From Escherichia coli (GTDB lineage Bacteria; Pseudomonadota; Gammaproteobacteria; Enterobacterales; Enterobacteriaceae): a stretch of 427 nt of DNA. The position numbers and the translations under genes were made by a program. The stretch's first letter is position 1. Every line of letters begins with the position of its first letter. This document shows, piece by piece, positions 1 to 427 of the stretch. The stretch lies in NCBI RefSeq assembly GCF_003334765.1, contig NZ_QOWT01000125.1. One strand, written 5' to 3'. Below the pieces are notes generated by a model that was not told where the DNA came from, did no database searches, and saw nothing but the letters and a program-made list of their open reading frames with translations.

Positions 1-427
1 ACTGCGGGCGTAAACACGCATAAAGGCAGCATTTTTTCTTTAGGGCTGCTATGTGCGGCAATTGGCCGTTTGCTTCAGCTCAACCAGCCGGTAACGCCAA
101 CAACCGTATGTTCTACGGCGGCAAGTTTCTGCCGTGGCCTGACCGATCGTGAACTGCGTACCAATAATTCACAACTGACGGCAGGTCAACGGTTGTACCA
201 GCAGCTAGGCCTTACCGGCGCACGCGGTGAAGCCGAAGCGGGTTATCCACTGGTGATCAACCACGCCTTGCCGCATTACCTCACTCTGCTGGATCAGGGA
301 TTAGATCCTGAACTGGCATTGCTCGATACCTTGCTCCTACTGATGGCTACCAACGGCGATACCAACGTTGCATCGCGCGGTGGCGAGGGGGGCCTGCGCT
401 GGCTACAGCGCGAGGCGCAAACATTAT
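1..427 (+). CDS. citG: Internal fragment (5' and 3' partial) of triphosphoribosyl-dephospho-CoA synthase CitG, which makes the precursor of the citrate lyase acyl-carrier-protein prosthetic group. Reading frame 1; the last base (427) is the first base of an incomplete codon.
   Basis: Seen in sequence: frame 1 is open for 142 codons with no stop, while + frames 2 and 3 have stops at 11-13 (taa) and 21-23 (taa); minus-strand frames traced from the 3' end are broken by stops within about 50 codons. The translation carries motifs I recall as typical of the CitG/MdcB family: NTHKG (nt 13-27), [11 protein letters not shown] (nt 217-249) and the glycine-rich [15 protein letters not shown] (nt 349-393). 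From memory, the whole peptide matches the middle of E. coli CitG; I could not verify this by search. Neither the start nor the stop codon is in the window. Confidence 0.9.

Follow-up and report, generated by a model that had tools for sequence, protein, structure and literature searches.

Coding Content of the Window

The DNA analyzed here, a stretch of 427 nt that is referred to in its whole length as the window (G+C content 56%), is an internal segment of citG, the gene coding for triphosphoribosyl-dephospho-CoA synthase, and has the sequence of an island-borne allele of this gene. Positions 1-427 of the plus strand correspond to codons 106-247 of 295, read in frame +1. This frame contains no stops in 142 codons, while several occur in each of the other five; by our own arithmetic, the chance that a random frame stays open over this length is approximately (61/64)^142 = 0.001. 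A megablast search retrieved full-length matches in 5,422 of 5,426 complete E. coli genomes, always under annotated citG (four genomes were without any citG match). In Santai, the window is found with 100% identity at L001 12001-12427, within a citG gene located at 11686-12573. The window is likewise 100% identical to citG at L008 27692-28118. In the coordinates of the window, citG starts at -314 and stops at +573, the citX stop is at -289 and the start of the next gene is at +599. Since all these starts and stops fall outside positions 1-427, there is no gene boundary within the window. The citX gene is located directly upstream and overlaps the start of citG by 26 nt.

The window differs from K-12 citG at 10 of 427 nucleotides. 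Nine of these differences are synonymous in frame +1, which identifies it as the conserved frame. The single non-synonymous difference is in codon 222 (positions 349-351, plus strand), which is ACC (Thr) here and ATC (Ile) in K-12 and which, as seen from codon-by-codon comparison, is the only amino acid difference from K-12 in the window. This codon is not specific for the island, since the core allele of strain 536 has the same base.

Searches of the window for other features retrieved nothing of substance. No Rfam family was found at E ≤ 1 apart from a meaningless microRNA match, the best of the scan, with E = 0.86, and the only repeats within the window were two 12-nt matches, which is chance level. 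The promoter scan yielded one weak promoter-like site against 0.3 expected by chance, which was rejected, and no terminator was found in the window.

The complete protein encoded by the matched gene was compared with family models. It matches Pfam PF01874 with E = 5.4e-84, residues 26-290 being aligned to model positions 5-284 of 284, and exceeds the thresholds of both CitG-specific models (641 bits for the NCBIfam equivalog NF007503, cut-off 477; 362 bits for TIGR03125, cut-off 272). MdcB, the triphosphoribosyl-dephospho-CoA synthase of malonate decarboxylase, belongs to the same Pfam family and has the same annotated chemistry, but its model, TIGR03132, scores 257 bits, which is under its own cut-off of 282 and far under the CitG models, and the neighbors of the gene are citrate lyase genes rather than mdc genes: in Santai, GTEN_97 and strain 10, citG is a part of a contiguous citC-D-E-F-X-G block. 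CitG converts ATP and 3'-dephospho-CoA to 2'-(5''-triphosphoribosyl)-3'-dephospho-CoA and adenine, and CitX then attaches the CitG product to CitD, the acyl-carrier subunit of citrate lyase. From the 98.3% amino acid identity between the island and K-12 CitG proteins, we infer that the island enzyme catalyzes the same synthesis; the acyl carrier that it serves is presumably CitD of its own module.

The first-pass annotation, made from the letters of the window, had predicted a single open frame for a CitG-like peptide, both ends of the gene outside the window and citX upstream, and the frame, coordinates and gene order given above bear this out. It was also right that operon structure and regulation cannot be read from the window alone. 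The checks that it proposed, i.e., a nucleotide search for near-identical central citG sequences, a profile search with the Pfam CitG/MdcB family and an alignment for conservation of frame 1, all came out in its favor.

Allelic Identity of the Window

The matches to the window in the 5,426 complete E. coli genomes are spread unevenly: identity is at least 99% in 24 genomes and 95-99% in 5,394. Two places matching the window as citG are present in 45 of the 5,426 genomes. Among the matches listed (60 rows), all 24 genomes with at least 99% identity hold two citG copies, the best allele from a single-copy genome, i.e., a core allele, reaches 98.6% (6 mismatches), and no genome has the window allele as its sole citG. 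Eleven matches are 100% identical, and, judging by coordinates, all of them adjoin either island acnB or island-specific upstream genes. At the 100%-match loci that were examined, citG is followed by acnB and citC is preceded by a gene of an MFS transporter; the canonical operon arrangement, with citT directly after citG and dpiB before citC, was found at none of them. The canonical arrangement was found in K-12, in 536 and at the core locus of strain 10.

In a four-way alignment, four synonymous third-position sites (108 A, 150 T, 207 A and 300 A; positions 108-300, plus strand) distinguish the island allele from all three core alleles compared, those of K-12, 536 and strain 10. These sites, together with other differences, explain why single-copy core alleles do not exceed 98.6% identity among the matches listed. 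Overall, this stretch of citG is ca. 1.4-2.5% different from every core allele. The window is thus assigned to the island by the identity of its allele, not by its flanks, and the island origin is not readable from the 427 bases without a database. The first-pass annotation had stated that no accessory or novel element is visible. This stands in the sense that nothing besides citG is present within the window, and is not supported in that the allele belongs to an accessory island copy. The setting that it implied, a standard E. coli cit operon, was not borne out: acnB and not citT comes after citG, and genes of a GntR regulator, an amidohydrolase and an MFS transporter, not dpiBA, come before citC.

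The Accessory Module in E. coli

The matched citG copy lies in a module of ca. 11 kb that consists of a divergent GntR gene (on the minus strand in Santai) followed by genes of a LigI-like amidohydrolase, the MFS transporter, citCDEFXG and acnB. The genes are tightly packed; just 25 nt separate the citG stop from the acnB start. The GntR-amidohydrolase-MFS part is present in 33 of 5,426 complete E. coli genomes, with at least 99% identity in all of them. Among the 45 genomes that have citG twice, approximately nine are accounted for neither by these 33 carriers nor by three truncated variants (see below), and one E. coli genome has three acnB places.

In Santai, the module is bracketed by ISEc38 and IS66 remnants within a large mosaic island. 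Other genes of the island in Santai and GTEN_97 are malX, one annotated as enterotoxin and one for an Ag43-type autotransporter; in some strains, the module is found beside the malX marker and the annotated enterotoxin gene. The surroundings of the module are of at least three kinds, those of the Santai/GTEN_97 island, those of strain 10, which has other flanks, and those of B-JRPT-4119. All genes of the module are intact in Santai, GTEN_97 and strain 10. In B-JRPT-4119 (NZ_CP106756.1; L010 17302-23196), there is a truncated version, 'citE-citF-citX-citG-acnB, fused to an autotransporter remnant; it is without the regulator, amidohydrolase, transporter, citC and citD genes and adjoins cadC and an integrase fragment. 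Since pheU adjoins cadC in K-12, insertion at pheU is likely in this strain. Two further genomes, NZ_CM128600.1 and NZ_CM128599.1, contain island citG-acnB without the upstream part. In GTEN_97 (NZ_CP113493.1; L009 and L012, at 0.66-0.71 and 3.58-3.63 Mb), the exuR-glnE gene order is opposite to that of K-12, whereas wca-yeg runs in the K-12 direction, which points to either a large inversion or an assembly problem.

Compared with the K-12 citCDEFXG-citT operon (CitG, b0613), the island has the same six cit genes in the same order and with the same overlap of citX and citG, at 96-99% nucleotide and 98-100% amino acid identity. It differs in its IS-rich location, in having acnB instead of citT after citG and in having the GntR, amidohydrolase and MFS genes upstream in place of dpiBA. 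The C-terminus of CitG is also different (the protein is 295 amino acids long in the island and 292 in K-12), as is the 5' end of citC. The dN/dS values relative to K-12 are 0.00-0.16 for citE, citF, citX, citG and acnB, with 0.04 for citG. Such low values fit functional genes, though repeated copying from functional core genes could contribute to them.

No sigma-70-like promoter was found in the 122-nt divergent region between the GntR and amidohydrolase genes, and no canonical terminator was found after island acnB. A hairpin is located ca. 70 nt past the acnB stop (L001 15266-15296; L011 22957-22987). It has a perfect 14-bp stem and an RNA folding energy of -23.8 kcal/mol, and it escapes the terminator scan because there is no T-run. 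The stems are identical in the two island lineages (described below), and the 3-nt loop is flipped (ATC vs. GAT).

The module was also looked for on plasmids. No PLSDB record covers the island-specific genes, all matches being to cit alone or to acnB alone. Several "plasmid" records of 0.65-4.9 Mb with core-type cit or acnB look chromosomal (e.g., NZ_CP141089.1, 4.9 Mb, and CP099174.1, 1.3 Mb). The citCDEFXG genes of the 113-kb plasmid NZ_CP110860.1 are 97.9% identical to the island block, and those of the 300-kb plasmid NZ_LR890350.1 are 80.8% identical to it. The island genes are already named in RefSeq annotation. A literature search for a second cit cluster, its amidohydrolase, a link to COG3618 or gene conversion between island and core retrieved nothing, which is weak evidence, as most subscription journals were outside the search.

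Related Loci in Other Genera and Known cit Systems

Loci with the same arrangement are present in three other enteric genera. In an Enterobacter, a divergent GntR gene is followed by amidohydrolase-MFS-citCDEFXG and then by an acnB remnant; in Citrobacter amalonaticus, by amidohydrolase-CitMHS-citCDEFXG-acnB-oadGA; and in K. oxytoca, by amidohydrolase-CitMHS-citCDEFG-oadGAB, with acnB and other genes of the aconitase family located beyond the GntR gene. These loci share with the E. coli module a divergent GntR/UTRA regulator, a PF04909 amidohydrolase gene in the first position, a transporter gene and citCDEF(X)G, and the presence of the same arrangement in all of them indicates that the architecture is older than its E. 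coli form. As in the E. coli island, acnB directly follows citG in Citrobacter, and a remnant does so in Enterobacter. The loci differ from the E. coli one in the transporter, which is CitMHS in Citrobacter and Klebsiella and an MFS protein in E. coli and Enterobacter, and in the oxaloacetate decarboxylase genes, which come after the cluster in Citrobacter and Klebsiella and are missing there in E. coli. They are also divergent in sequence: their amidohydrolases are only 59-75% identical to that of the E. coli island, and their cit genes have 59-87% nucleotide identity to the island ones. For the genes that only the module has, nucleotide identity between E. coli and Enterobacter is just 72-81%. 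The Enterobacter acnB (L005 9105-10410) is truncated and riddled with stops; its ribosome-binding site and its MLKEYRK start are those of E. coli island acnB.

Further genes were noticed near amidohydrolase loci. In K. oxytoca (L006/L007 1-8966), genes for an aconitase, PrpF, a second aconitase, a protein of the isocitrate/isopropylmalate dehydrogenase family and AcnB stand in a row by the amidohydrolase locus. In E. fergusonii (L017 14448-20795), there are genes for a PF10282 lactonase, a CitMHS transporter, an aconitase, PrpF and an aconitase. The two neighborhoods suggest that a wider set of tricarboxylate-handling genes is associated with the amidohydrolase.

The citrate-fermentation cluster of Klebsiella pneumoniae differs from the island in its CitS transporter and CitAB two-component control, and it is not known to contain an amidohydrolase or aconitase gene. 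In this organism, the genes for citrate lyase and its activation, citG included, are found in one variable genomic locus, where citCDEFG is accompanied by citS-oadGAB-citAB (PMC2735749).

Relationship between Island and Core Copies

The citC-citG block of the island has 97.6% identity to K-12 and ca. 99.0% identity to the core genes of strains such as 536 and NC101. For island acnB, identity is 96.8% to the K-12 gene and 98.0% to the best core allele. The cit and acnB loci, which are 25 nt apart in the island, are separated by ca. 515 kb in K-12. The similarity to core genes does not extend to the edges of the blocks: the first ca. 30 nt of citC, the last ca. 50 nt of citG, the acnB ribosome-binding site with the first three codons and the last ca. 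35 nt of acnB are all divergent from the core. A likeness of the edges to the Enterobacter module is clear at the 3' end of citG and the 5' end of acnB and weak at the 5' edge of citC. The CitG protein ends in ...LLIVTWFLASLTGR in the island, the Enterobacter sequence is ...LLIVTWFLTALTR..., and the K-12 protein ends in ...LLILTWFLAQI. AcnB begins with MLK in both the island and Enterobacter, and with MLE in K-12.

Comparison of two lineages of the island revealed that they are 0.4% apart over the GntR-amidohydrolase-MFS part and ca. 2.5% apart from citE to acnB. In strain 10 (NZ_CP048330.1), the island was compared with the core genes of the same genome. There are no differences over ca. 2.6 kb and ca. 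0.8 kb of cit (alignment columns ca. 600-3200 and 4200-5000) and over ca. 0.6 kb of acnB (ca. 1000-1600). In the same tracts, the strain 10 island has 3-9 differences per 200 nt from the Santai island, and the edges of the blocks stay divergent. Thus, in this one genome, we observe what is expected of gene conversion: identical tracts of paralogs that are bounded by divergence and that differ between orthologs. In the Santai-type island, mid-citC through citX has ca. 20 differences in 4 kb from the 536-type core, while citG is ca. 2.5% divergent. The window can be distinguished from core alleles because it lies in this less homogenized stretch of citG.

The shared architecture, the foreign edges, the divergence between lineages and the strain 10 tracts together argue that the interiors of the cit and acnB genes of a foreign module were overwritten by resident core genes. 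The island cit and acnB genes would then resemble those of the E. coli core because of gene conversion with the resident copies, with foreign sequence left only in the outer 10-50 nt of the blocks and the window placed inside the converted interior. The comparisons show overwriting between island and core that appears to have happened more than once. Putting this together with the allele data, we consider it very probable (roughly 0.85) that the window is the middle of citG in the allele of a second citCDEFXG cluster, that this cluster belongs to an accessory module and that, as the best explanation of its similarity to the core, the interiors of its genes were gene-converted.

Three other accounts of the window and its gene were weighed. 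An origin of the window in the canonical citCDEFXG-citT core operon of an E. coli or Shigella strain agrees with the 95-99% identity to core citG in 5,394 genomes and with the position of citX, which is upstream in both arrangements. We find this origin scarcely credible, given that single-copy genomes reach no more than 98.6%, that the eleven 100% matches and the 24 matches of at least 99% are all in two-copy genomes among the matches listed and that the matched copy adjoins island acnB or island-specific upstream genes. Next, island cit and acnB might be a recent, simple duplication of core genes brought together in a new operon within E. coli, without conversion; island genes 97-99% identical in nucleotide sequence to core genes that are ca. 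515 kb apart in K-12 could arise in this way. This would leave the gene order and the tight citG-acnB junction, with the shared ribosome-binding site and MLK start, unaccounted for in Enterobacter, where the flanking genes are 72-81% identical, as well as the presence of the arrangement in Citrobacter and a CitG tail of the Enterobacter and not of the K-12 type. The divergence between lineages, which in the core-homologous part is ca. sixfold that of the unique part, and the identical island/core tracts of strain 10, flanked by divergent sequence, are also at odds with simple duplication, which we therefore regard as improbable. Finally, the existence of truncated variants of the module and the pseudogene remnant of acnB in Enterobacter could be taken as a sign that the accessory citG has lost its function and is a duplicate in decay. 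The full-length modules that were examined have an unbroken citG reading frame with a score over the curated CitG cut-off, the dN/dS of citG is 0.04, and neither Santai nor GTEN_97 nor strain 10 has a broken module gene, which makes decay highly improbable.

Proposed Pathway

The first gene of the module (L001 5158-5955 in Santai) codes for a 265-amino-acid amidohydrolase of the PF04909 family. The nearest structures are 2FFI, a putative 2-pyrone-4,6-dicarboxylate hydrolase (E = 1e-67), 4I6K and LigI 4D8L (E = 4e-24). The conserved motifs DTHAH (residue 4), VDHF (residue 153) and SDWPH (residue 222) align with the DxHxH, DH and DWPH motifs of LigI 4D8L, which we take to be the catalytic residues of LigI. 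The protein thus has the Amidohydrolase_2 fold with the HxH, His and Asp motifs of the COG3618/LigI type. None of the NCBIfam named equivalogs reached its cut-off, so the protein was not placed in a subfamily of known substrate; the best named models were 4-sulfomuconolactone hydrolase (137 bits, cut-off 500) and L-fucono-1,5-lactonase (24 bits, cut-off 400). LigI and COG3618 lactone hydrolases share with the module enzyme the PF04909 fold family and the aligned motifs; unlike them, it has citrate lyase and aconitase genes for neighbors and not genes of lignin or sugar-acid pathways. The MFS protein is similar to transporters of organic anions from the PgtP and D-galactonate groups.

In Pseudomonas and Paraburkholderia, a homolog of the amidohydrolase is encoded beside a regulator gene and an MFS transporter gene alone. 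Such a set would be enough if the product of the enzyme can feed straight into central metabolism. In the enteric versions, the set is extended by citrate lyase and aconitase B, and in two genera also by oxaloacetate decarboxylase, which are components of fermentative citrate breakdown.

One can propose that the module forms a self-contained, separately regulated catabolic route. The transporter would import an organic-acid lactone, and the lactonase-like amidohydrolase would open the ring to yield a tricarboxylate other than citrate, most economically isocitrate from isocitrate lactone. AcnB would then isomerize the ring-opened product to citrate, which citrate lyase would split into acetate and oxaloacetate. 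An aconitase would be superfluous if the product of the hydrolase were citrate, which makes isocitrate or aconitate the likelier product and a lactone the likelier substrate. The core cit operon is under control of DpiBA, and core acnB has its own regulation. Private cit and acnB genes under the GntR/UTRA regulator would free the pathway from the control of core genes, and CitG, CitX and CitC of the module would activate its own lyase outside the reach of DpiBA control, which depends on citrate and anaerobiosis. The logic of the pathway, from a lactone through a tricarboxylate to citrate lyase, is tentatively suggested by sequence comparison and gene content; the naming of isocitrate lactone as the substrate, which comes from gene content and the argument that AcnB would otherwise be unnecessary, is more speculative still.

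The main rival to the pathway reading is that the module is merely a second citrate-fermentation operon with a transporter that imports citrate, the amidohydrolase and acnB being incidental neighbors. The complete citCDEFXG set favors this, as do the Citrobacter and Klebsiella versions, which, as in classical citrate fermentation, use CitMHS and then oxaloacetate decarboxylase genes. The amidohydrolase and GntR genes, on the other hand, keep their place in front of the cluster across four genera despite the exchange of MFS for CitMHS, acnB is tightly joined to citG, citrate fermentation needs no aconitase, and the amidohydrolase occurs with a transporter and a regulator alone in Pseudomonas and Paraburkholderia. 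We consider a second citrate operon of this kind unlikely, though by no means negligible. What we put forward as a tentative possibility is that an uncharacterized module feeds a tricarboxylate lactone (that of isocitrate being the simplest, with hydroxycitrate-type alternatives) into citrate lyase, while its cit and acnB genes may be kept near-identical to the core by repeated conversion.

Implications

The window itself matters little, as it is ordinary coding DNA from a gene that is well understood. The accessory copy of citG is a paralog of this well-known gene in a variant operon, and a 427-nt read that resembles core citG in this case marks a rare accessory island. This has consequences for read mapping, pangenome clustering and allele typing, since the island and core copies differ by just 1-3% and exchange sequence. 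The CitF proteins of the strain 10 island (L011) and core (L016) have the same RefSeq accession, WP_089580529.1, and clustering of a pangenome at the protein level would therefore merge accessory and core copies.

In the compact operon, which is kept in several enteric genera, citrate lyase and aconitase B are combined with a transporter and a lactonase-like enzyme. Were the substrate identified, anaerobic citrate metabolism would gain a new route of entry. If the repeated conversion between island and core is true, it would provide a clear example from nature of a mobile island and core metabolic genes evolving in concert.
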